A stretch of 23,392 bases of DNA from an uncultured virus (IMG/VR IMGVR_UViG_3300031673_000002) (lineage: Duplodnaviria; Heunggongvirae; Uroviricota; Caudoviricetes): the IMG/VR virus record IMGVR_UViG_3300031673_000002. One strand, 5' to 3'. Shown here piece by piece: positions 3,950-21,064 of the stretch; positions within the stretch are counted from its first letter, which is position 1, and each line of letters begins with the position of its first letter. Below the pieces are notes generated by a model. The model saw only the letters and a program-made list of their open reading frames with translations. It made no database searches and had not been told where the DNA came from. A program made the position numbers and the translations under genes.

Positions 3950-4255
3950 CTAGACGCCGAAGATCCTCTCCGCTTCCTCAAGCTGTGACAGCCGACCCCT
4001 GACCGACGATGTAGCTTCATCTTCATCATCTTCGGCAGTGAACAGCTTGACGATCTCCGCCAGCCGTTCCAGCGAGGGCAGCGACCTGTTTTGTTCCCAT
4101 CCCCACACCGCCTGACGCTGGACGCCGAGTATGTCTGCAAGTGCCCGGAGGCTCAAGTTGCGGGAGCACCTTTCACGGTTGATGTACTCGCCGATCTCGT
4201 CGGCAGGAGGGAGGGGGATATGGGTTCCGTCCTCATCGACAGCAATGAATCTCAT
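3950..4255 (-). CDS. XRE-family helix-turn-helix regulator
   Basis: IGEYINRER-x3-NLSLRALADILGVQRQAVWGWEQNRSLPSLERL HTH_3 pattern; ATGA overlap with helicase stop. Confidence 0.85.
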   Translation of the reverse strand: MRFIAVDEDGTHIPLPPADEIGEYINRERCSRNLSLRALADILGVQRQAVWGWEQNRSLPSLERLAEIVKLFTAEDDEDEATSSVRGRLSQLEEAERIFGV

Positions 4256-7008
4256 TCGCCCATCCTTTCTCTGTAGCGCTTACTTTGTCTTGCTTCATCT
4301 GCCATGTCGGCAAAGAGCTTTGTGACTGCGTTCGGGGCAGACGCTGCCGCAGCCCGAAGACCTCGGCGTCGCTTTTGAAGGCCACCGTCTTCTGACGCAC
4401 GAGCATCCCCTCTCATGACTTTAGCGGGGTCGCGCCCGTCTGCCACAAGTTCTATGTCCATGCCCTCCTCGATGAGAGCCTTGTGCGTTCCTCGGGCACA
4501 GCCGTACAAAAGCCCGTGTCCCTCATCGACGAAGTACCGGAAGATCGGGTGCTTCTTGCCTTCGTGATGACGACGAATTCTACCCATCATCTGCTGAAGC
4601 AGCGGAGCGTTGTTCATCGGGCACGTTGCGTAGAGCGTGTCGAGAACGGGGATGTCCACACCCAGCTTGAACACCTGGGTCGCGCAGATCACGCGAAGGC
4701 GACCCTCGCCCATCTCGTTGATGATCTTGTTACGCTTCGCCGTAGGCATACCGCCAGTTACGGCAGCAGCGGGCACTCCCAACTCATCCCGGATGTACTC
4801 CGCCTGCTCGACACACCAGTTCACGCGGTCGGAGAGGATCAATAGGTTACGACCATCCTTGATGTCTTGCTCCGCCCAACGCATGATGAGGTCGTTGCGG
4901 TCTGCCTGTCGGCAGAGGAAGTTGAGCATGTGGGGCCACTCGCTCTTGCGCTGGAAGCTAGACCCCTTGTAGTGGATCCCGGTCTGGATCATGTACGCGA
5001 CCACCCCAAGCTGCCGCGCCTTGCCGTGCGCGGTGATGGGGCCAACGATGTCGAATAGCGCTACGTCAAGCATGTCCTTACGCTTGGGGGTAGCGGTGGC
5101 TCCTCCGCGCCGCTTCGCGTGGAAGCCGTTGACGACGGAGGCTGCCTGCGGTGCGGCGAATACGTGGGCCTCGTCACAAAGCAGGTGGCCGAACTCCTTG
5201 CCCACCTCCTTGAGTGCCTTACGTCCGCCGTGAGAGATGAACGACTGCCAGGTCGCTACCGTGACGGGGTACAGGTTCTCAGGCCCCCTGTAGCGCCCTA
5301 CGATCTCGATGCCGAGCTTCTCCTCGACCTCCAGGCAGTTGGTCACGGGGGCGTACTCGGTGTCCTCTTCGTCCGCGTTCAGGGGGGACCCGTAGCGGAA
5401 CCGCGTGAGGAACTGCTCCGCCAAGGCGTCTGTGTGGACCAGCACGATGGTGCGTTGCTTGAGCGCCATGATGAGGTCTATCATCACGAAGGTGTTGTGC
5501 GTGACTACGTAGTCCTTGGTGACGTACAGATTATCTGGCGCGTCCACCGAGATGCAGACGCACTCAGCCGTGCCTACGTCCTCAACCTCCACCACCCTGC
5601 GGCATGGCAGGGTGCGCGGTCGACGCTCGTACACGGCGCGCTTCCTTGTCAACGTGAAGGGTGTGAAAGGAAGTTTCACGGTTACGTTGTAAGCGACTTG
5701 CCCAGTACGTCGCTCTCCCTTGTAGACGTAAGAGGTCTTCTTCTGTGACAGGCGGGCGGTACCTCCGAGCGAGCGGACAAGATGGACCGTGTCGAGCGCT
5801 AGCCGCTCACTCACCGTCGTCAGTTGCGACCCGCGAGTCCACCCGTCTGTGTCCATGATCCCGCACAACAACGCTCTCCGCTGCTCGACGCTAGAAGCCA
5901 TGTAGAGGATGGGGATGAATTTTGAGTTCGATAGACATCCCCAAAGACCAAGGTCTTTGAGTGCTTCCTTTACGGAAGACTTCCTCTCGTCGAAGCTGCC
6001 GGTCTCCCTTGAGATTCGATAGGAGGGAGCCCGGTCGCCCTTTATGGGGCTACAACGGAATCCCTCGGGGAGGCCGGCACTTACTGCTTGGACGATCTCC
6101 TCGTCTACAGTCGTAAACGTCGGAGAAGCTAGGTACTCCGCGAGGCATCCGTCCCCGAGTAGAACTCCAAGAACATACGGGTCCAGCGGAAGGTCTGCCT
6201 CTTCTCCCTGAACCTCGACCAAGGGGACACGCCATCGTGCTTGACCGCAGGGTTCCCGAAGGGTGTCCTGTACCTGCTGGGTCGTAAGCACACGTTGGGG
6301 CCTTCCTCGTCGCTTATCCCAGTCATTCGTTACCGACCATAAGTGATCGGCGTCTGCCCGCACGCTGGCTCCGTCTGAGAAGCGCACCAAGCGGACGGGT
6401 CTTTCACCCTGTGGGAACACGCCCGTGACTCTGCAAGGTTTCCCATTCGATCCAATAACCGAGTCGCCGACCTTGAGGGAGCCGATGGCGTGCCAGCCGC
6501 TAGGCGTCAGGACGACCTCATCAAGAGGCTGTGCCTTGCCGAACGCTGGAGCCGCCTTGAGGATCCCGTGTCCGGCCTTGAACCACTGCGCGATGGCATC
6601 GTTCTGGTAGTCCCTGGGCGTCATCAGGAGCTTCAGGGCGTTCGCGACCTTGGGATCCCAGGGAACGTCCACACGACGGTCCACAAGGGTCAGACCGAGC
6701 CTTTTGACCAGGGCTCTGGTTTTCTTCAAGTCGCCCAGGCAGAGCGCCCACCACTTGTCCCCGACCTCAGTCCAGTTCTTGATCACCATGTGATCCTGGG
6801 TTGTGAGGTCCTTCAACATGTCGTCGGTGTCGAGCCCGCCACCAAGCTGCTCACGCATTGCAGCGATCTGCTGCTGCATGATGCGACCCTCGGGCGTACG
6901 CAGTAGCTCGATGCTGTACTCCCATTCCGGAGCGAACTCCGAAGGGGTGCCAGCGACATGTCGCTTAGGGATCCACAGATAGTTGGATAGGATGGCTTTG
7001 CCTGTCAC
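4252..7008 (-). CDS. superfamily 2 (DEAH, UvsW/XPB/ResIII-like) helicase, intein-containing
   Basis: Q motif PRDYQ, Walker A APAFGK|T split by intein, motif II LLCDEAH, III ATATP, V GVDIP, VI QMMGRIRR; extein about 571 aa. Confidence 0.92.
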   Translation of the reverse strand: MTGKAILSNYLWIPKRHVAGTPSEFAPEWEYSIELLRTPEGRIMQQQIAAMREQLGGGLDTDDMLKDLTTQDHMVIKNWTEVGDKWWALCLGDLKKTRALVKRLGLTLVDRRVDVPWDPKVANALKLLMTPRDYQNDAIAQWFKAGHGILKAAPAFGKAQPLDEVVLTPSGWHAIGSLKVGDSVIGSNGKPCRVTGVFPQGERPVRLVRFSDGASVRADADHLWSVTNDWDKRRGRPQRVLTTQQVQDTLREPCGQARWRVPLVEVQGEEADLPLDPYVLGVLLGDGCLAEYLASPTFTTVDEEIVQAVSAGLPEGFRCSPIKGDRAPSYRISRETGSFDERKSSVKEALKDLGLWGCLSNSKFIPILYMASSVEQRRALLCGIMDTDGWTRGSQLTTVSERLALDTVHLVRSLGGTARLSQKKTSYVYKGERRTGQVAYNVTVKLPFTPFTLTRKRAVYERRPRTLPCRRVVEVEDVGTAECVCISVDAPDNLYVTKDYVVTHNTFVMIDLIMALKQRTIVLVHTDALAEQFLTRFRYGSPLNADEEDTEYAPVTNCLEVEEKLGIEIVGRYRGPENLYPVTVATWQSFISHGGRKALKEVGKEFGHLLCDEAHVFAAPQAASVVNGFHAKRRGGATATPKRKDMLDVALFDIVGPITAHGKARQLGVVAYMIQTGIHYKGSSFQRKSEWPHMLNFLCRQADRNDLIMRWAEQDIKDGRNLLILSDRVNWCVEQAEYIRDELGVPAAAVTGGMPTAKRNKIINEMGEGRLRVICATQVFKLGVDIPVLDTLYATCPMNNAPLLQQMMGRIRRHHEGKKHPIFRYFVDEGHGLLYGCARGTHKALIEEGMDIELVADGRDPAKVMRGDARASEDGGLQKRRRGLRAAAASAPNAVTKLFADMADEARQSKRYRERMGE
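5494..6534 (-). mobile_element. class 3 intein with LAGLIDADG homing endonuclease (347 aa)
   Basis: Starts AQPLD (Ala1), block B DHLW, LAGLIDADG motifs LGVLLGDG and LCGIMDTDG, block F CVCISVD, ends VVTHN before Thr+1. Confidence 0.9.
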
Positions 7009-7755: not shown

Positions 7756-7831
7756 TGGTCGCAACGGGCGGGCTCGAACCGCCGACCCAACCCTTATGAG
7801 GGGTTTGCTCTACCTACTGAGCTACGCTGCG
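7756..7831 (-). tRNA. tRNA-Met(CAU), non-initiator (Met or Ile2 unresolved)
   Basis: Cloverleaf, loop CT-CAT-AA, C1-G72 paired, A73, CCA. Confidence 0.9.
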
Positions 7832-7896
7832 TAAGTCCTAACCGGCCCCGCCTGACCACGGGGTGGATACCCCATGCGCGTGAAGCCGGCTTCGGT

Positions 7897-7971
7897 TGGT
7901 GCTTCGGGCCGGACTCGAACCGGCGTCCCTGAATTTTCAGCCCAGTGCTAAACCACCTCAGCTACCGAAGC
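7897..7971 (-). tRNA. trnF: tRNA-Phe(GAA)
   Basis: Cloverleaf, loop CT-GAA-AA, CCA. Confidence 0.92.
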
Positions 7972-8015
7972 AAAACCCGAGTCTAGGCTCCGTCAGAGGA
8001 GCTTCGGTCGGGGGA

Positions 8016-8092
8016 TGGAGGCGACGATCGGGGTTGAACCGATGACCTACGGTTTTGCAGACCGGCGCTCTACCGCGCTGAGCTACGTCGCC
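8016..8092 (-). tRNA. trnC: tRNA-Cys(GCA)
   Basis: Loop CT-GCA-AA, U73, CCA. Confidence 0.92.
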
Positions 8093-8101
8093 AGAAACAT
8101 G

Positions 8102-8197
8102 ACACGAGCAAGTAATTGGTGCCGGGGGTAAAGAGCGGTAACCCGGTTGTGTGCGGTGTGGAAATTTGGGCTCTCTGCACCACCTTTCGGCTCGTGT
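8102..8197 (-). ncRNA. Y RNA-like, no tRNA module, with extra internal hairpin
   Basis: Terminal stem ACACGAGC-C-GA / CUUGCUCGUGU with bulged C (Ro60 site); internal CCGGGUUACC motif. Confidence 0.7.
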
Positions 8198-8200
8198 TGT

Positions 8201-8276
8201 TGGCAGGGGCAGTCGGGATCGAACCGACGACATCCAGAATCAGAATCTGGCGCTCTTCCATCTGAGCTATACCCCA
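8201..8276 (-). tRNA. trnQ: tRNA-Gln(CUG)
   Basis: Loop TT-CTG-AT, G73, U1:U72 mismatch, CCA. Confidence 0.9.
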
Positions 8277-8300
8277 TCAAAAGTTGAAGCAAAGAGCGAT

Positions 8301-8377
8301 TGGGGTGACCGACGAGAATTGAACTCGCGTACCCAGAGTCACAGTCTAGTGCCTAAAACCACTCGGCCACAGCCACC
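8301..8377 (-). tRNA. trnH: tRNA-His(GUG)
   Basis: Loop CT-GTG-AC, encoded G-1:C73, CCA. Confidence 0.93.
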
Positions 8378-8420
8378 ATACAGCTCTCTACTTCTCGTCG
8401 TTACTTTCTTCCGTACAGGA

Positions 8421-8525
8421 GGTTTGGGTGGAGGTTTGGAACACGATGCTCGATTCTTACCGAGCGGGATGGGTTTGGGTGGAGGTTTGGAACACGATGC
8501 TCGATTCTTACCGAGCGGGATGGGT
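8421..8525. repeat. exact tandem duplication of a 51-bp unit
   Basis: GGTTTGGGTGGAGGTTTGGAACACGATGCTCGATTCTTACCGAGCGGGATG at 8421-8471 and 8472-8522. Confidence 0.92.
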
Positions 8526-8611
8526 GGTGTAGTGGGAGGGACTCGAACCCCCAACCACATGGGCCTGCCGGGTTACAGCCGGTGACGTCTGCCAATCGAC
8601 GCTTCCACTAC
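8525..8611 (-). tRNA. trnY: tRNA-Tyr(GUA), atypical D arm
   Basis: Loop CT-GTA-AC, long variable arm, G1-C72, A73, CCA; A at position 8. Confidence 0.85.
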
Positions 8612-8640
8612 ATTGAGTGGCATCGTCTTGAGCTTCTAAC

Positions 8641-8714
8641 TGGCTGCGGGAGCAGGACTTGAACCTGCATGGCCGGTATCAAAAACCAGTATCCTACCAT
8701 TAGATGATCCCGCA
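8641..8714 (-). tRNA. trnQ: tRNA-Gln(UUG)
   Basis: Loop TT-TTG-AT, U1-A72, G73, CCA. Confidence 0.92.
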
Positions 8715-8744
8715 TCGAGGTGACGAAGCATCACGCGCGGGGTG

Positions 8745-8820
8745 TGGCAGGGGCATCGAGAGTCGAACTCGAAGCCTTCGGTTTTGGAGACCGGTGCTCT
8801 ACCAGTTGAGCTATACCCCT
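8745..8820 (-). tRNA. trnW: tRNA-Trp(CCA)
   Basis: Loop CT-CCA-AA, G73, CCA. Confidence 0.93.
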
Positions 8821-8937
8821 TCAGCCGCGCGGATGCTTGCGTTGGCCGAAGGGGCGCCAATAATGCTGCATAAACATCACGGCACCCTGCTTCGCAGCGG
8901 GACAAGTCGTCTTGGTGATGTTGGTTGCAGTCTTCAT
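8821..8937 (-). CDS. putative leader peptide MKTATNITKTTCPAAKQGAVMFMQHYWRPFGQRKHPRG (may start at ATG 8877)
   Basis: Stop abuts tRNA-Trp 5' end; MFMQHYW matches the amino acids of the downstream tRNA block; SD weak. Confidence 0.6.
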   Translation of the reverse strand: MKTATNITKTTCPAAKQGAVMFMQHYWRPFGQRKHPRG

Positions 8938-8997
8938 GGCGTGCTTCTTCTGGGTTTTGGTCGGGCACCCAGTTGGTGGTGCTCACGACTCCTGACG

Positions 8998-9027
8998 ATA
9001 GTATGCGAAGTCAGATTCAGAACGCAA
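8998..9027 (-). promoter_or_regulatory. putative sigma70-like promoter for the Trp-to-Met tRNA block
   Basis: TTGCGT-N18-TACTAT. Confidence 0.4.
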
Positions 9028-9048: not shown

Positions 9049-9324
9049 TCACTTTTTCTGGGATCGGCGCTTCTCCAGGAACGCCATCGTCTCTTTCATC
9101 GTGTAGTGCCACTTCATCTTGACGTGGGCCATACCCATGGCGATACCCCAGGCGTTACGGAACCTGTAGTCCAGGCTGAGCGGGTCACCGGGCAGCATCT
9201 TCTTCCCCAGCATACCGCGCCAGTACCCCACCGCGTGCCATGGGACCAAGAGCAGGTAGCGTCGTCGCCACAAGCGTACAGGCCAGCGCTGGTTCTGGAA
9301 GCGGTTGTCTATTGGCGGAGTCAT
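9049..9324 (-). CDS. hypothetical basic protein (91 aa)
   Basis: GAGGT SD; ATGA overlap with upstream gene; 3' part of ORF 9049..9570. Confidence 0.65.
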   Translation of the reverse strand: MTPPIDNRFQNQRWPVRLWRRRYLLLVPWHAVGYWRGMLGKKMLPGDPLSLDYRFRNAWGIAMGMAHVKMKWHYTMKETMAFLEKRRSQKK

Positions 9325-11289: not shown

Positions 11290-11427
11290 TGAGAGCAAGG
11301 AGTGCGGCGAGGGAGATTTTAACGTTGCTCTACCAACTGAGCTACGCCCCCAAAAGTGGGGACGACGGGACTCGAACCCGCGACCAACGGCTTGGAATGC
11401 AGATAACCCTCAGTGCTTCGGCTCTCA
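11290..11427 (-). ncRNA. yrlA: YrlA-type Y RNA (Ro60 stem plus permuted tRNA-like domain)
   Basis: GAGAGC-C-GA / CUUGCUCUC stem; T arm GCGGG-UUCGAGU-CCCGU, then closed acceptor-like stem, then D arm GCUC-AGUUGGUA-GAGC; no anticodon loop. Confidence 0.9.
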
Positions 11428-11536: not shown

Positions 11537-11669
11537 GACGAGCAAGTAGGTGACCTGGATGTTTTACGCGCTCTACCGATTGAGCTATCCGGCATCTGGT
11601 TGCCGGAGAGGGACTCGAACCCCCAACCACGCGAGTATGATTCGATAATCCAGTATCTGTCGGCTCGTC
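11537..11669 (-). ncRNA. yrlA: YrlA-type Y RNA
   Basis: GACGAGC-C-GA / CUUGCUCGUC; T arm GGGGG-UUCGAGU-CCCUC, closed stem UCCGGCA/UGCCGGA, D arm GCUC-AAUCGGUA-GAGC. Confidence 0.9.
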
Positions 11670-11678
11670 AAAGAAATA

Positions 11679-11810
11679 GTGAGCAAGTAGTCGCGAAGGG
11701 GACGCTAAACTGGTGCGCTGCCGGACTGCGCCACACGGCATTACTGCCATGGCAGGATTTGAACCTGCGACCCCCAGTGACCTTTGGGTAACCCTAAGCT
11801 GTCGGCTCAC
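11679..11810 (-). ncRNA. yrlA: YrlA-type Y RNA
   Basis: GUGAGC-C-GA / CUUGCUCAC; T arm GCAGG-UUCAAAU-CCUGC, closed stem CAUGGCA/UGCCGUG, D arm GCGC-AGUCCGGCA-GCGC. Confidence 0.9.
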
Positions 11811-11882: not shown

Positions 11883-13595
11883 TCAGCCTCGCGCGAACGA
11901 GGCCATGACCTGGGGCGTGTCGGCAGAGAAGCCGACAACATCGAGCATCCCTGCATCGCTGGGATCAGCGATGCTGAATCCCGTCGAGGTCATGCCCATG
12001 ACGATGAGCTTCGCTGCCCGTCCCATCGTCTGCCGGTACTGGCGGAGTGCCTGCACCGGGTGAATGTTTCCTGCCCAGGTCTCGTTGTCGGTGATCACCA
12101 CGAAGGTGTCCACTTCCAGCTTCTTCTCGGTTGCGTACGTCATCGGAAGAGCGCAGTCGGTTCCGCCGAAGGGCAGACCGGACACCGAGCGGACAGCGTC
12201 CGTCAGTGACATGCGGTCGTGGAGCTTCAACTCGCTGACCCCTGCTCCAAAGCGCGGACCCCACTGTGAGCGGCCCGGGCCTCCCGTGAATCCGATGACG
12301 TGGTGTGCCGGCTCGACGTTCATGGTCACGAGGGCCATGGCAGCCGATGCTTCACGGGCAGACAAGGGCGAACCCAGGATCTGTGCTCCCATGGAGCCCG
12401 ACACGTCGAGTGCGAGCAGCCAGTTCTGGTTCGTGGGCTCGACTGCCTTGAACGCCAGGTAGAACGCCTTGTCCAGTGCGGACACAATGTTCCTGTCAGC
12501 CGTCCAGACCAGCTTGCCCTTGTGACCGTGACCCTGCTCATAGGTTCGGAGCGCCATCAAGATAGCCATCGGGTGGACCCGTGCCCTCGCCAACTCGTTC
12601 GCGTCGCACAGGCGTGCGGTCACGAACTTGGAAGCATCCGACAGGGGCTTGGTGAGCCCGATGCTCGACATCTTGCCGAGGTTCCGAATCATGGCCGTCA
12701 CGGGCATGCCCTTGCCAGCCATGAGCAGCGCCTCCCAGACCGCGAGGTCGTTGAGGTGCTCCGTCTTCACGCACTCACGGGGCAGACCGTACTCGACGAT
12801 CAGCTTGGCCGTGTCGCGCGCTGAGGTCGCCTCTCGTGCCTTCTCCACGCCCTCGACCAGCCGGGGCAGGTCGCGCTTGTAGAGCCGCTTGTAGGTCCCC
12901 TCAGACAGCACGGTGCCGTCCTTCGTCGTCCGGGTCACCTTGCGCTGAGCGAGCTTGCCGTCAGCGATGAGGTACCGGAACAAGGTCTCGTGACCCTTGG
13001 TCGCGGGCGCCGTGCCCTTCTTCGCACCCATGTGAGACTTGGCGAGCAAGTCCTTGTGGGTCCAGCCCTCGCGGGACTGGTACTTGAAGAGGTCGAGCGC
13101 CAGACGGTCGGGCGACTTCGCGTTGTAGTACGACGCCACGGCCTTCGCCGTGATGCGACCCCAGCCGCCGAGAGCCTGGCAGGCTTCCGCGAACTGGAAG
13201 ATGTGCGTACCGATACGGCAGACCTTGGGCACGGCGTCCTTAGCAGCCCGACGGGTGTCGAGGTCGCCCTGCTTCATGGCCAACGCCAACGCGAAGATGG
13301 CCGGGTCGTTCTTGGGCGCGAGGCCCTGCTCCGACACCTCGACGATGCGAGCCACGGCACGAGCACCATCGGCCTTGATGCAGCGGATCACGCACTCGGC
13401 GTTCTCGATGGTCAGCTTGCGCTCGGAAGCGTAGTACGTACCCGCCTCGGCACCGAGGATCAGGAAGCGGTCGAACCGCGTCCAGTCGTCAACGGCGAAC
13501 ACGAAACCACCAGCGTTGTTCTTGACCTGCGTCGAGCCGGGGATCTTCTCCCGCTGCGAGGTCTTCTTCGTGTTGAAGTGCTGTGCGTACGTCAT
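11883..13595 (-). CDS. rsr: Ro60 / TROVE-domain RNA-binding protein (Rsr)
   Basis: QVKNNAGGFVF, RFLILGAEAGTYY, KYQSREGWTHKDLL, AMIRNLGKMS, RVHP, vWA MIDAS DVSGSM, GGTDCALPM, TDNETW; AGAGGAG SD. Confidence 0.97.
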   Translation of the reverse strand: MTYAQHFNTKKTSQREKIPGSTQVKNNAGGFVFAVDDWTRFDRFLILGAEAGTYYASERKLTIENAECVIRCIKADGARAVARIVEVSEQGLAPKNDPAIFALALAMKQGDLDTRRAAKDAVPKVCRIGTHIFQFAEACQALGGWGRITAKAVASYYNAKSPDRLALDLFKYQSREGWTHKDLLAKSHMGAKKGTAPATKGHETLFRYLIADGKLAQRKVTRTTKDGTVLSEGTYKRLYKRDLPRLVEGVEKAREATSARDTAKLIVEYGLPRECVKTEHLNDLAVWEALLMAGKGMPVTAMIRNLGKMSSIGLTKPLSDASKFVTARLCDANELARARVHPMAILMALRTYEQGHGHKGKLVWTADRNIVSALDKAFYLAFKAVEPTNQNWLLALDVSGSMGAQILGSPLSAREASAAMALVTMNVEPAHHVIGFTGGPGRSQWGPRFGAGVSELKLHDRMSLTDAVRSVSGLPFGGTDCALPMTYATEKKLEVDTFVVITDNETWAGNIHPVQALRQYRQTMGRAAKLIVMGMTSTGFSIADPSDAGMLDVVGFSADTPQVMASFARG

Positions 13596-13643: not shown

Positions 13644-13707
13644 GAGAGCAAGTGAGGTGCTTCAGGGGGAAATCTTTACCTGGATAACCCTGGTGCGTTC
13701 GGCTCTC
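13644..13707 (-). ncRNA. short Y RNA-like (64 nt) immediately 5' of rsr
   Basis: GAGAGC-C-GA / CUUGCUCUC; CAGGGUUAUC...CCCUG inner stem. Confidence 0.78.
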
Positions 13708-13710
13708 AAA

Positions 13711-13806
13711 TGGTTGCGGGAGGAGGAATCGAACCTCCGTCGCTCGGGTTATGAGCCCAAGTTCAGTGCCCTAGCTTTCGATAGGGCTTCCAGCACCGTC
13801 CCCGCG
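13711..13806 (-). tRNA. initiator tRNA-fMet(CAU) with about 20-nt hairpin inserted in the D loop
   Basis: C1:A72 mismatch, GGG/CCC anticodon stem, loop CT-CAT-AA, normal T arm, CCA; 96 nt. Confidence 0.85.
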
Positions 13807-15323: not shown

Positions 15324-15402
15324 TGGCGGCACGTACGGGATTTGAACCCGTGATCTCCTCCGTGACAGGGAGGCGTCCTAAACCGAACTAGACCAACGCA
15401 CC
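15324..15402 (-). tRNA. trnD: tRNA-Asp(GUC)
   Basis: Loop CT-GTC-AC, G73, CCA. Confidence 0.93.
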
Positions 15403-15409
15403 AAATGAA

Positions 15410-15480
15410 CCTTCCCAGAACGTTTGAACCCCCTCGACCGTCTGACGGCCAAGGGGGTTCAAGTGAACCTGGGCGTCAGA
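15410..15480 (-). promoter_or_regulatory. attenuator-like RNA switch between tRNA-Pro(CGG) and tRNA-Asp
   Basis: 18-bp hairpin 15424-15462 mutually exclusive with pairing 15474-15480/15441-15447 plus 15464-15469/15456-15461; no clear U tract. Confidence 0.5.
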
Positions 15481-15488
15481 AAAGATGG

Positions 15489-15725
15489 TCAGCCAGTACC
15501 GGCTTCAACGCGACGATCATTCGCATTGATCGCGGTCGTCCCGAAAATCGAGGTGCGCTTGGCGCAGATGAAGCTCTCTGCTGATTTTTGGTCTCGGTGG
15601 AGGGAATCGAACCCCCGTTTTCTTGCTCCCGAAGCAAGCGGCCTACCTGACTGGCCCACACCGAGGCACGGGGAAGCAGAGAGCTTCACTGGCGACGGCT
15701 TTGTAGGTGGGGTCATGGTGAACAT
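15489..15725 (-). CDS. putative 78-aa leader ORF reading through tRNA-Pro(CGG)
   Basis: ORF track; GAGG SD; five Pro before the tRNA-Pro; stop lies 8 nt before the switch at 15480. Confidence 0.4.
   Translation of the reverse strand: MFTMTPPTKPSPVKLSASPCLGVGQSGRPLASGARKRGFDSLHRDQKSAESFICAKRTSIFGTTAINANDRRVEAGTG
15589..15665 (-). tRNA. trnP: tRNA-Pro(CGG)
   Basis: Loop TT-CGG-GA, C1-G72, A73, CCA. Confidence 0.9.
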
Positions 15726-19988: not shown

Positions 19989-20011
19989 ATAAATGGCGGC
20001 TACGGTGAGAA

Positions 20012-20098
20012 TGGAGGAAAGCAGCGGGATCGAACCGCACACCCGAAGGTGCCACTTGATTAGCAATCAAGGCCAGGACCAGACCTGGGTTACTTTCC
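20012..20098 (-). tRNA. trnS: tRNA-Ser(GCU), atypical D arm
   Basis: Loop TT-GCT-AA, long variable arm, A8, extended D stem CCAGG/CCTGG, CCA. Confidence 0.85.
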
Positions 20099-20102
20099 AT
20101 AG

Positions 20103-20197
20103 TGGCGGAAGGAGAGGGGGTCGAACCCTCACGACCCCTTTCGAGGTCAGTCCGATTTCGAGTCGGGTGCCGGCGCCATCTATCGGCTGGTCCTTCC
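20103..20197 (-). tRNA. trnS: tRNA-Ser(CGA)
   Basis: Loop CT-CGA-AA, long variable arm, G73, CCA. Confidence 0.88.
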
Positions 20198-20201
20198 AAA
20201 A

Positions 20202-20296
20202 TGGCGGATGGAGCGAGGGTCGAACTCGCACGACCCCTTTCGAGGTCAGCCCGATTTCCAATCGGGTGCCGGCGCCAACTATCGGCTGGCCCATCC
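20202..20296 (-). tRNA. trnS: tRNA-Ser(GGA)
   Basis: Loop TT-GGA-AA, long variable arm, G73, CCA. Confidence 0.88.
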
Positions 20297-20699: not shown

Positions 20700-20800
20700 A
20701 CAGGTGGTGGTACGTATTCAGTTGTGGTCACGATGGCTGGTCGTTTTCGGGAGCCTTGGTCCTCATCTTCAATTCGCGAATTGCGATCGTCCCTTCCCAG

Positions 20801-20840
20801 AAAGAGAAAAACCCCCTCGCGGTCTCACCGGAGGGGGTTT
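20801..20840 (-). terminator. attenuator terminator upstream of Leu/Ser tRNA block
   Basis: AAACCCCCUC-CGGU-GAG-ACCG-C-GAGGGGGUUU followed by UUCUCUUU. Confidence 0.85.
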
Positions 20841-20866
20841 GTGTCGTCTTGGCCTGAGATCAGTTC

Positions 20867-20938
20867 CTAGACACACCCCTCCGTCGTCGAGCTAAGGCTC
20901 GACAGCAGCAGGAGGGATGACAAGGAGCGGAAGTTCAT
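20867..20938 (-). CDS. Ser/Leu leader peptide MNFRSLSSLLLLSSLSSTTEGCV
   Basis: 13 consecutive Ser/Leu codons; stop at the end of the antiterminator 5' strand; SD weak. Confidence 0.78.
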   Translation of the reverse strand: MNFRSLSSLLLLSSLSSTTEGCV

Positions 20939-20966
20939 CGGTATGGGGCCTGGCAAAAGAGATAGA

Positions 20967-21026
20967 GAGAGCAAGTAGTTGGAACGGGGGATTCTTTGGA
21001 CAGATAACCCGAACCGCGCGGCTCTC
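20967..21026 (-). ncRNA. short Y RNA-like (60 nt) heading the Leu/Ser tRNA transcript
   Basis: GAGAGC-C-G / CUUGCUCUC stem (one mismatch above bulge); CGGGUUAUC...CCCG inner stem. Confidence 0.65.
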
Positions 21027-21034
21027 GACTAGGA

Positions 21035-21064
21035 TGTGTAGCAGCACGGTGTGGTGCCCGTCAA
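21035..21064 (-). promoter_or_regulatory. putative sigma70-like promoter of Y RNA-leader-Leu/Ser block
   Basis: TTGACG-N18-TACACA with TGn extended -10; predicted start near Y RNA 5' end. Confidence 0.45.

Follow-up and report, generated by a model that had tools for sequence, protein, structure and literature searches.

Leader-peptide attenuation is textbook for amino-acid biosynthesis operons, and in enterobacteria some of the attenuators are multivalent: the thr leader is rich in Thr and Ile codons, and the ilvGMEDA leader in codons for Ile, Leu and Val. In pyrBI-type attenuation the leader open reading frame (ORF) overlaps the attenuator hairpin itself and a closely following ribosome blocks the hairpin. 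T-boxes, which act on aminoacyl-tRNA synthetase and amino-acid genes, bind uncharged tRNA directly, with no ribosome involved, and read a single specifier codon. Here we describe a 38-codon ORF that precedes a block of eight tRNA genes (block D) on the minus strand of a 23,392-nucleotide stretch of DNA from an uncultured virus (IMG/VR record IMGVR_UViG_3300031673_000002; ‘the window’ hereafter means this whole stretch), and that carries seven consecutive codons for amino acids served by the tRNAs behind it. On balance, we consider it probable that the ORF is a translated, codon-matched leader set in a conserved two-hairpin RNA, which would couple the output of the Trp-to-Met block to the decoding of its own codons. 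We searched literature available without subscription and met no case of a leader peptide that controls tRNA genes or phage tRNA arrays; one of the papers mentions a tRNA operon in passing only (PMC3082878).

The block D leader (Table 1) resembles the thr and ilvGMEDA attenuators in that a short 5'-leader ORF, located on the same strand as the genes behind it, is enriched in codons of several linked amino acids (the enrichment is significant for the seven-codon run, corrected p ~0.011, and weak for the whole ORF), and in that it can form alternative hairpins, designated H1, X and H2. Unlike in those systems, the genes to be regulated are tRNAs and not biosynthetic enzymes, and each codon is used once or twice; unlike in classical attenuators generally, there is no U-tract terminator, the regulatory codons lie in region 2 and not in region 1, and the ORF continues across the last hairpin. 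As for the classical antiterminator geometry, the run lies inside X, and only direct masking of the H2 5' arm by a ribosome at codons 25–27 fits. Since the terminator is lacking and the placement of the regulatory codons relative to the alternative helices departs from the classical one, we set the block D leader apart from the classical attenuators: it would work like a leader-peptide attenuator, but we do not count it as a member of that class.

The comparison with pyrBI is instructive in a different way. As in pyrBI, the block D ORF crosses the hairpin (codons 28–32, Gly38 and the stop codon overlap it, with the stop in the 3' arm), and it would be the ribosome on the 5' arm, rather than an antiterminator helix, that decides the outcome. 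However, pyrBI senses UTP via polymerase pausing and not charged tRNA, and it ends in a true intrinsic terminator, whereas the block D hairpin has no U-tract and its 3' arm is the tRNA’s own 5' end. With T-box riboswitches the leader would share the tying of expression to the charging of specific tRNAs by codon–anticodon reading in leader RNA; an Rfam scan of the window gave no match to a T-box or any other leader family. Finally, gp149 of Caulobacter phage CcrBL9 is, like the block D leader, a short ORF composed of residues that match the tRNA block behind it; in gp149, however, the cognate codons are spread across the whole ORF, while block D combines a compact seven-codon list with a hairpin built in part from the 5' end of the tRNA.

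Table 1. Positions of the block D leader, its hairpins and the Leu/Ser device in the window (kcal/mol values are predicted folding energies)
Feature	Description	Span	Strand	Basis or energy
Leader ORF	38 codons and TGA; MKTATNITKTTCPAAKQGAVMFMQHYWRPFGQRKHPRG	8821..8937	-	ORF read from sequence; 38-amino-acid homologues
Codon run	Met-Phe-Met-Gln-His-Tyr-Trp (ATG TTT ATG CAG CAT TAT TGG); ATGTTTATGCAGCATTATTGG	8857..8877	-	read from sequence
Hairpin H1	5' arm 8941-8915 (ATG 8937, codons 1-8); 3' arm 8880-8855 (run)	8855..8941	-	-34.0 kcal/mol alone
Hairpin H2	12 bp; 5' arm GCCCCTTCGGCC 8855-8844; 3' arm GGCTGAAGGGGT 8826-8815	8815..8855	-	-27.3 kcal/mol
Alternative hairpin X	8893-8881 pairs with 8858-8847; run self-folded at tip	8845..8898	-	-25.9 kcal/mol
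Promoter-like pair	TTGCGT (9027-9022), 18-nt spacer, TACTAT (9003-8998); ~60 nt 5' of ORF	8998..9027	-	sequence inspection
Block D	eight tRNA genes: Trp(cca), Gln(ttg), Tyr(gta), His(gtg), Gln(ctg), Cys(gca), Phe(gaa), Met(cat)	7756..8820	-	ARAGORN, Rfam
Leu/Ser device	ORF 20938-20867, MNFRSLSSLLLLSSLSSTTEGCV and stop; Leu/Ser run from 20926	20800..20938	-	codon run and folds

The leader frame, its codon run and its relatives

The stop codon of the leader ORF (TGA, 8823–8821) directly adjoins tRNA-Trp, the first tRNA of block D, the 5' end of which is placed at 8820 by both ARAGORN and Rfam; the two lie on the same strand with no gene between them. A preliminary description of the locus had noted the run, a Cys codon upstream in the same frame and the agreement between the amino acids of the run and those of the downstream tRNAs, and all of this stands: Cys is codon 12, every codon of the run can be read by some tRNA of block D, and the agreement is unlikely to be due to chance (see below). 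GC content at the third codon positions of the ORF (GC3) is 0.71. The first ATG of the run (8877) is a possible internal start, with GGGTG (8887–8883) ahead of it at a 5-nt spacing.

The promoter-like pair upstream of the ORF, which a sigma-70 scan did not call, is the presumed promoter of the leader, and it suggests that the ORF and tRNA-Trp would share one transcript. The pattern TTG-N21-TAC-N2-W is found four times on the minus strand, with three of the four sites heading tRNA blocks (21064, 15797 and 9027), and six times in total on both strands as compared to 2.9 in shuffled sequence. We rejected the AT-rich run itself as a -10 promoter element: no usable -35 element is found at the correct spacing and the promoter scan calls none.

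When codons for Met, Phe, Cys, Gln, His, Tyr and Trp are considered, the run is the sole stretch of at least six in the six frames of the window, the next longest being four runs of five. In order-2 Markov simulations (n = 400), a run of at least seven nevertheless arises somewhere in 9.5% of the windows, and therefore it is the location of the run that is rare and not its existence. To score location, we searched the 300 nt upstream of the next tRNAs (up to eight of them) on the same strand and took the longest run of codons cognate to them; this gap statistic was applied to every tRNA gap of at least 60 nt. For the run before block D this gave p ~8.5e-4, or ~0.011 after correction for the 13 gaps of the window. 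Only two of the 13 stand out, the gap ahead of the Leu/Ser block (p ~1.2e-7) and that ahead of block D; the other 11 have p values of at least 0.15, and the opposite-strand controls values of at least 0.1. Across 63 gaps in four other phages (Alone3, McWolfish, VAC35 and CcrBL9, with two McWolfish loci overlapping by 3.5 kb) the minimum p was 0.012, as expected under the null. The order of the run matches the gene order of block D in reverse (MFMQHYW against MFCQHYQW, longest common subsequence 6 of 7; p 0.003 for either orientation, post hoc). This order is unexplained, and we treat it as possibly a chance effect, since the CcrBL9 leader shows no such order.

Relatives of the frame are few. 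A HMMER scan of 1.84 billion representatives with the 38-amino-acid frame returned three matches, two of which are unrelated long proteins; the third, P0003, is a 38-amino-acid protein with 73% identity encoded on a JGI contig of 982 bp. A word-indexed search with a 42-codon reference added P0006, a 38-amino-acid frame with 87% identity on a Logan contig of 1516 bp. The candidates P0004, P0005 and P0007 were discarded as unrelated long proteins, and searching genome contigs with the core-peptide pattern gave 0 matches. The core G-A-x-M-F-M-Q-H-Y-W-R-P-F-G is invariant, except at x, in all three peptide variants (the window ORF, P0006 and P0003), while the flanks differ at 11 of 24 positions, often radically; thus, in the three-peptide alignment, the regulatory codons and the frame stay constant within an otherwise changing peptide. 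In P0003 the stretch before the core is shorter by one codon and that after it longer by one, and yet the frame is kept and ends in the same Arg-Gly-stop. The frame is therefore real, as had been proposed, in the sense of being kept.

The residues encoding the two arms of H2 (RPFG and RG-stop) are invariant in both relatives, and in both of them Thr8Ala and Val20Ala are found together. Deduced from the peptides (Thr8Ala being a change at codon position 1 and Val20Ala at codon position 2), these replacements correspond to A-to-G at 8916 and U-to-C at 8879, and so turn the pair 8916:8879 in the AACAUCAC/GUGAUGUU stem of H1 from A-U into G-C. Asn6Ile in P0003 disrupts the next-to-last pair of the same stem. 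Taken together, the comparison indicates that selection acts on the frame, on the core and on H1; selection on codons and selection on pairing are not separable here, since the comparison rests on the peptides of the relatives and not on their DNA. Contigs from the sequencing runs include one 656-nt piece identical to the window and one of 274 nt (8651–8921), which is uninformative on the leader because all of its listed differences fall in the T arm of tRNA-Trp.

Hairpins of the leader RNA and the proposed mechanism

The leader RNA (9010–8815) has a predicted folding energy of -74.7 kcal/mol (z = -3.1), with one of 200 shuffles equally stable. The two stems of the preliminary description are both present. 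The upstream stem, said to cover the Met-Phe start of the run, is part of H1: AACATCAC (8922..8915) pairs with GTGATGTT (8880..8873) and covers ATG 8877. H1 as a whole consists of ~20 outer pairs and two small inner hairpins, and it is contained in the minimum-energy fold of the whole leader. The second stem is H2. Its 5' arm begins one base past TGG and comprises codons 28–32 (Arg-Pro-Phe-Gly-Gln), and its 3' arm comprises Gly38, the stop codon and bases 1–6 of tRNA-Trp. H2 is more stable (-27.3 kcal/mol) than the entire tRNA-Trp alone (-24.7 kcal/mol), and its upper six pairs duplicate pairs 1–6 of the tRNA-Trp acceptor stem. In the minimum-energy structure predicted for leader and tRNA together, the 5' strand of tRNA-Trp (bases 1–6) is sequestered by H2, and its acceptor stem is therefore unformed. 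The idea that the H2 5' arm is a relic of a tRNA 3' end was dropped, there being no T-arm ahead of it. As it is not followed by a U-tract, H2 is not a canonical terminator; inside block D, too, the terminator scan called no terminator-like site on the minus strand.

Hairpin X is mutually exclusive with both H1 and H2, and therefore the formal 1:2 / 2:3 / 3:4 topology of classical attenuators is present. The run sits in region 2 of this topology, inside X and not in region 1, and a ribosome stalled on it would destroy X. We modelled ribosome stalls as constrained folds with a 30-nt footprint. H2 is lost in these folds only with the A-site at codon 25 or later (codons 25–32), and within the run only the His, Tyr and Trp A-sites (codons 25–27) reach the H2 5' arm. 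The earlier proposal that a ribosome paused on the run would mask this arm thus survives for His, Tyr and Trp and fails for Met, Phe, Met and Gln; since stalls at these four positions leave H2 intact, the run cannot be a single seven-codon sensor acting via the H2 5' arm. H2 would act directly on tRNA-Trp only, and control of all eight tRNAs is therefore left unexplained.

The mechanism that we propose is only partly supported by these results. The 117-nt stretch from the likely promoter to tRNA-Trp would be the translated, codon-matched leader of an eight-tRNA operon. In this RNA, H1 would lock the run and both candidate starts against the first eight codons, and H2 would pair a copy of the tRNA 3' acceptor strand with the stop codon and bases 1–6 of tRNA-Trp. 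As long as H2 is held, the acceptor stem of tRNA-Trp could not close and RNase P would not cleave; H2 may double as a weak, U-tract-poor terminator. A translating ribosome would melt H1, and a ribosome awaiting scarce charged tRNA at His, Tyr or Trp would cover the H2 5' arm and so free the tRNA end. Slow reading of the rare codons, such as a poor or depleted host pool could cause, would then raise the output of the block. Transcription from the promoter-like site, translation of the ORF, the sign of the response and the effect on tRNAs beyond Trp are all parts of the scheme that we infer.

A broader version is possible, although we put it forward only tentatively: each sorted tRNA block may be gated by a small test ORF written in the codons of that block, which would let the virus sense when host tRNAs are short or depleted, and the output at block D may be tRNA maturation and not termination, with the acceptor-mimicking hairpin giving way to a ribosome that waits at Trp, Tyr or His and thereby frees the tRNA for RNase P. 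Under such maturation control, the reversed order of the run would place the codon of the first tRNA beside the hairpin. An output that is controlled via an acceptor-stem-mimicking hairpin would be previously undescribed. If true, large phages would gauge how fast particular sets of codons are decoded and respond with the tRNA block that fits, instead of simply expressing spare tRNAs. This would have implications for the purpose of phage tRNA arrays, for the ways in which phages might counter tRNA-depleting defences of the host and for the sorting of the arrays by amino acid; block D would add a possible second output, the control of tRNA 5' maturation.

Candidate leaders of other tRNA blocks in the window and in other phages

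A second device of this kind lies in the same window, with its leader ORF located ~230 nt ahead of a block of four tRNA-Leu genes. The 13-codon Leu/Ser run of this ORF is the longest in the six frames and is the one that yields the p value of ~1.2e-7 given above. Its predicted hairpins are 1:2 (-23.7 kcal/mol), 2:3 (-27.3 kcal/mol) and 3:4 (-19.2 kcal/mol), with region 1 inside the run; the terminator stem (20837–20812) is followed by TTTTTCTCTTTC / UUUUUCUCUUUC, and a U-tract is present. The full fold consists of 1:2 and 3:4 (z = -4.0, with 0 of 200 shuffles as good), while a fold that is cut before region 4 forms 2:3. Together with the promoter-like TTGACG-18-TACACA, the device spans 20800–21064 on the minus strand. 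The classical attenuator design is thus found here in full, intrinsic terminator included, and the Leu/Ser leader is, as modelled by folding, a textbook leader-peptide attenuator placed before tRNA genes. No protein homologue of its frame scored among 546 candidates.

The leader of CcrBL9 is the annotated 39-amino-acid gp149 (11308–11427, MTRIHTTLPTAKPASTGALTLASWPASSKPLLRHSAVLA), which precedes a block of 12 tRNAs (Pro Thr Lys Leu x3 His Ala Ser x3 Trp); 33 of its 38 residues are cognate to that block (corrected p ~4e-6). The same phage has a second ORF at ~18799 that contains RQFVRQIQSVRVNR and lies ahead of a Val Ile Val Gln Asn Arg Phe block. Given the Leu/Ser attenuator in the window and the leader in CcrBL9, the prior for a codon-matched leader at block D is raised.

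Weaker examples may be found in Streptomyces phage Alone3 (~9056–9204), where two frames, MSRLLLLLEPQTQT... and MTPTTTTC..., precede a Thr x3 - Leu x2 block with corrected p values of 0.015 and 0.05. Two more candidates in the window were rejected as not significant. Ahead of tRNA-Pro at 15665 (MFTMTPPTKPSPVK...), the best run has a p value of 0.15; ahead of tRNA-Asp at 15402 (MRMIVALKPVLADHLF), 8 of the 13 residues after MRM are cognate and an antiterminator was not found. Downstream of MRMIVALKPVLADHLF, in the interval between tRNA-Pro(cgg) and tRNA-Asp (15403–15588, minus strand), there is a strong 18-bp hairpin that is followed by TCTGGGAAGG, as is the Leu/Ser terminator; it has no U-tract. 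The Leu/Ser block also carries tRNA-Ser(tga) and three tRNA-Ser-like genes missed by ARAGORN (20003–20292, minus strand; anticodon loops GGA, CGA and GCT), two of which form a 99-nt tandem pair with 88% identity and give weak Rfam tRNA-Sec matches (32 and 21 bits).

Alternative explanations and genomic setting

Several points weigh against a translated, codon-matched leader at block D. A weak Shine–Dalgarno-like GAAGAAG is all that precedes ATG 8937, and both candidate starts (8937 and 8877) are buried in H1. Each regulatory codon is present once or twice, while classical leaders repeat them, and the intrinsic terminator that classical attenuators have between codons and regulated genes is not found: UAUAGCUC and not a U-tract follows H2, where the terminator scan calls nothing. 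Since stalls from Met21 to Gln24 spare H2, four of the seven run codons are left without a role in the proposed step, and H2 touches tRNA-Trp only. Conservation of the run could come entirely from H1 pairing, as the relatives are compared as peptides, on which synonymous change cannot be judged; and as the relatives came from gene calls in protein databases, broken-frame copies would have been missed. The weak Shine–Dalgarno-like sequence and the buried starts would suit a structured, untranslated 5' leader in which H1 and H2 serve as a processing, stability or pausing element, for example by ordering RNase P or RNase E cuts or by protecting the 5' end, and in which the frame and the codon match are incidental. 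The fold is significantly stable (z = -3.1), the compensatory pair in H1 speaks for selection on pairing even where the peptide is altered by it (Thr-to-Ala and Val-to-Ala), and the invariant core coincides with the 3' arm of H1 and the 5' arm of H2. Complementarity to the run accounts for the composition of the ORF's N-terminal half, and an open frame of 38 codons is not rare in DNA of 59% GC. An untranslated leader is the main rival explanation, but we regard it as unlikely: it does not account for the position-specific codon match (p ~8.5e-4), for the run following the gene order in reverse (6 of 7, p 0.003, post hoc), for the survival of the frame through two length changes in P0003 or for the clear translated-leader designs before the Leu/Ser block and in CcrBL9.

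The statistics themselves invite caution. A corrected p of ~0.011 is not overwhelming given the number of windows read initially: very many were screened at the first stage, and a coincidence with p ~1e-3 is expected somewhere among them. Furthermore, when the ORF is scored in full, the cognate residues number just 12 of 37 (corrected p 0.07). The run could then be an AT-richer intergenic patch that happens to read as seven such codons and has no function, in keeping with the 9.5% of simulated windows that contain a run of this length and with the mostly null p values in the four other phages. Such pure coincidence is nevertheless improbable in view of the invariant core between diverged flanks, the significant fold with its compensatory pair, the correct location and strand, and the sister attenuator in the same window. 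Marginally less credible still is a small protein with an independent function, carrying the motif MFMQHYWRPFG and located next to tRNA-Trp as a result of tight phage gene packing. The 38-residue length and the 11-residue core are indeed kept in all three variants, and small annotated coding sequences lie directly before tRNAs in Streptomyces phage Alone3 and Klebsiella phage VAC35. But the radical changes in the flanks (Lys-to-Thr, Gln-to-Leu or deleted, Arg-to-Gln, Pro-to-Gln/Met) are atypical of a folded or binding peptide, two of the replacements follow the pairing of the RNA, the stop codon is enclosed in a hairpin formed with the tRNA, and among the 1.84 billion representatives no such protein was found beyond this lineage, two of the three matches being unrelated.

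The window contains 35 tRNA genes, as called by ARAGORN, all on the minus strand and grouped into blocks by amino acid. The blocks are flanked by phage-type genes encoding a Ro60/TROVE protein, HNH endonucleases, ArdA, an MT-A70 methylase, an AAA ATPase and a helicase with a LAGLIDADG insert. Ro60 proteins of Gordonia, Mycobacterium and Streptomyces phages share no more than 47% identity with the one encoded here. No close match was found among phage, plasmid or IMG/VR records: a high-identity search of phage and plasmid records gave 0 matches, a distant blastn search with the eight-tRNA block gave matches to single tRNAs only and no homologous array, and viral-contig searches with the 91-amino-acid gene upstream of the leader, with a degenerate pattern of the run and with Ro60 returned 0 relatives for each query. 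From the distant Ro60 relatives, the lack of a close record and the length of the contig bearing the orphan gene (147 kb, see below), we conclude that the source of the window is a large, uncultured actinophage-like virus with a GC content of ~0.59.

The helicase (918 amino acids, 4252–7008, minus strand) has ResIII and Helicase_C domains and a LAGLIDADG homing-endonuclease or intein-like segment at approximately residues 369–445. Used as a metagenome query, it recovered the same phage again, on a contig that ends short of block D, and six other loci with 27–41% identity; these six of the seven loci match only the intein-bearing part around the LAGLIDADG insert (query residues ~126–538). The 91-amino-acid gene (9049–9324, minus strand), located immediately upstream of the leader, is an orphan: a protein search returns only the gene itself, on three contigs, the longest being 147 kb. 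It is rich in the block D residues Trp, Met, Tyr, His, Phe and Gln (20 of 65 in the scored sub-ORF, corrected p 0.017). Within block D, the gap between tRNA-Tyr and tRNA-His contains a perfect 51-nt tandem duplication (8421–8522).

Modules resembling YrlA-type Y RNAs are found around the Ro60 gene (11883–13595) and within the tRNA arrays, at 11322–11389, 11564–11632 and 11711–11776 on the minus strand, and Y-like short forms lie near 13700–13640, 21024–20950 and 8200–8093. Each Y-like module consists of a tRNA 3' half and then a 5' half, flanked by a conserved GAGCCGA...GGGTTATC / CTTGCTC helix, which we take to be similar to the Ro-binding helix of Y RNAs. The Rfam YrlA matches are sub-threshold (44, 40 and 36 bits against a gathering score of 69); following these matches, an interpretation of the gap modules as circularly permuted tRNA genes was dropped in favour of YrlA-like Y RNAs. 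Just upstream of one short Y-like RNA and the start of Ro60, a tRNA-like gene that ARAGORN did not call (13715–13805, minus strand) has a CAT anticodon loop and an enlarged D region.

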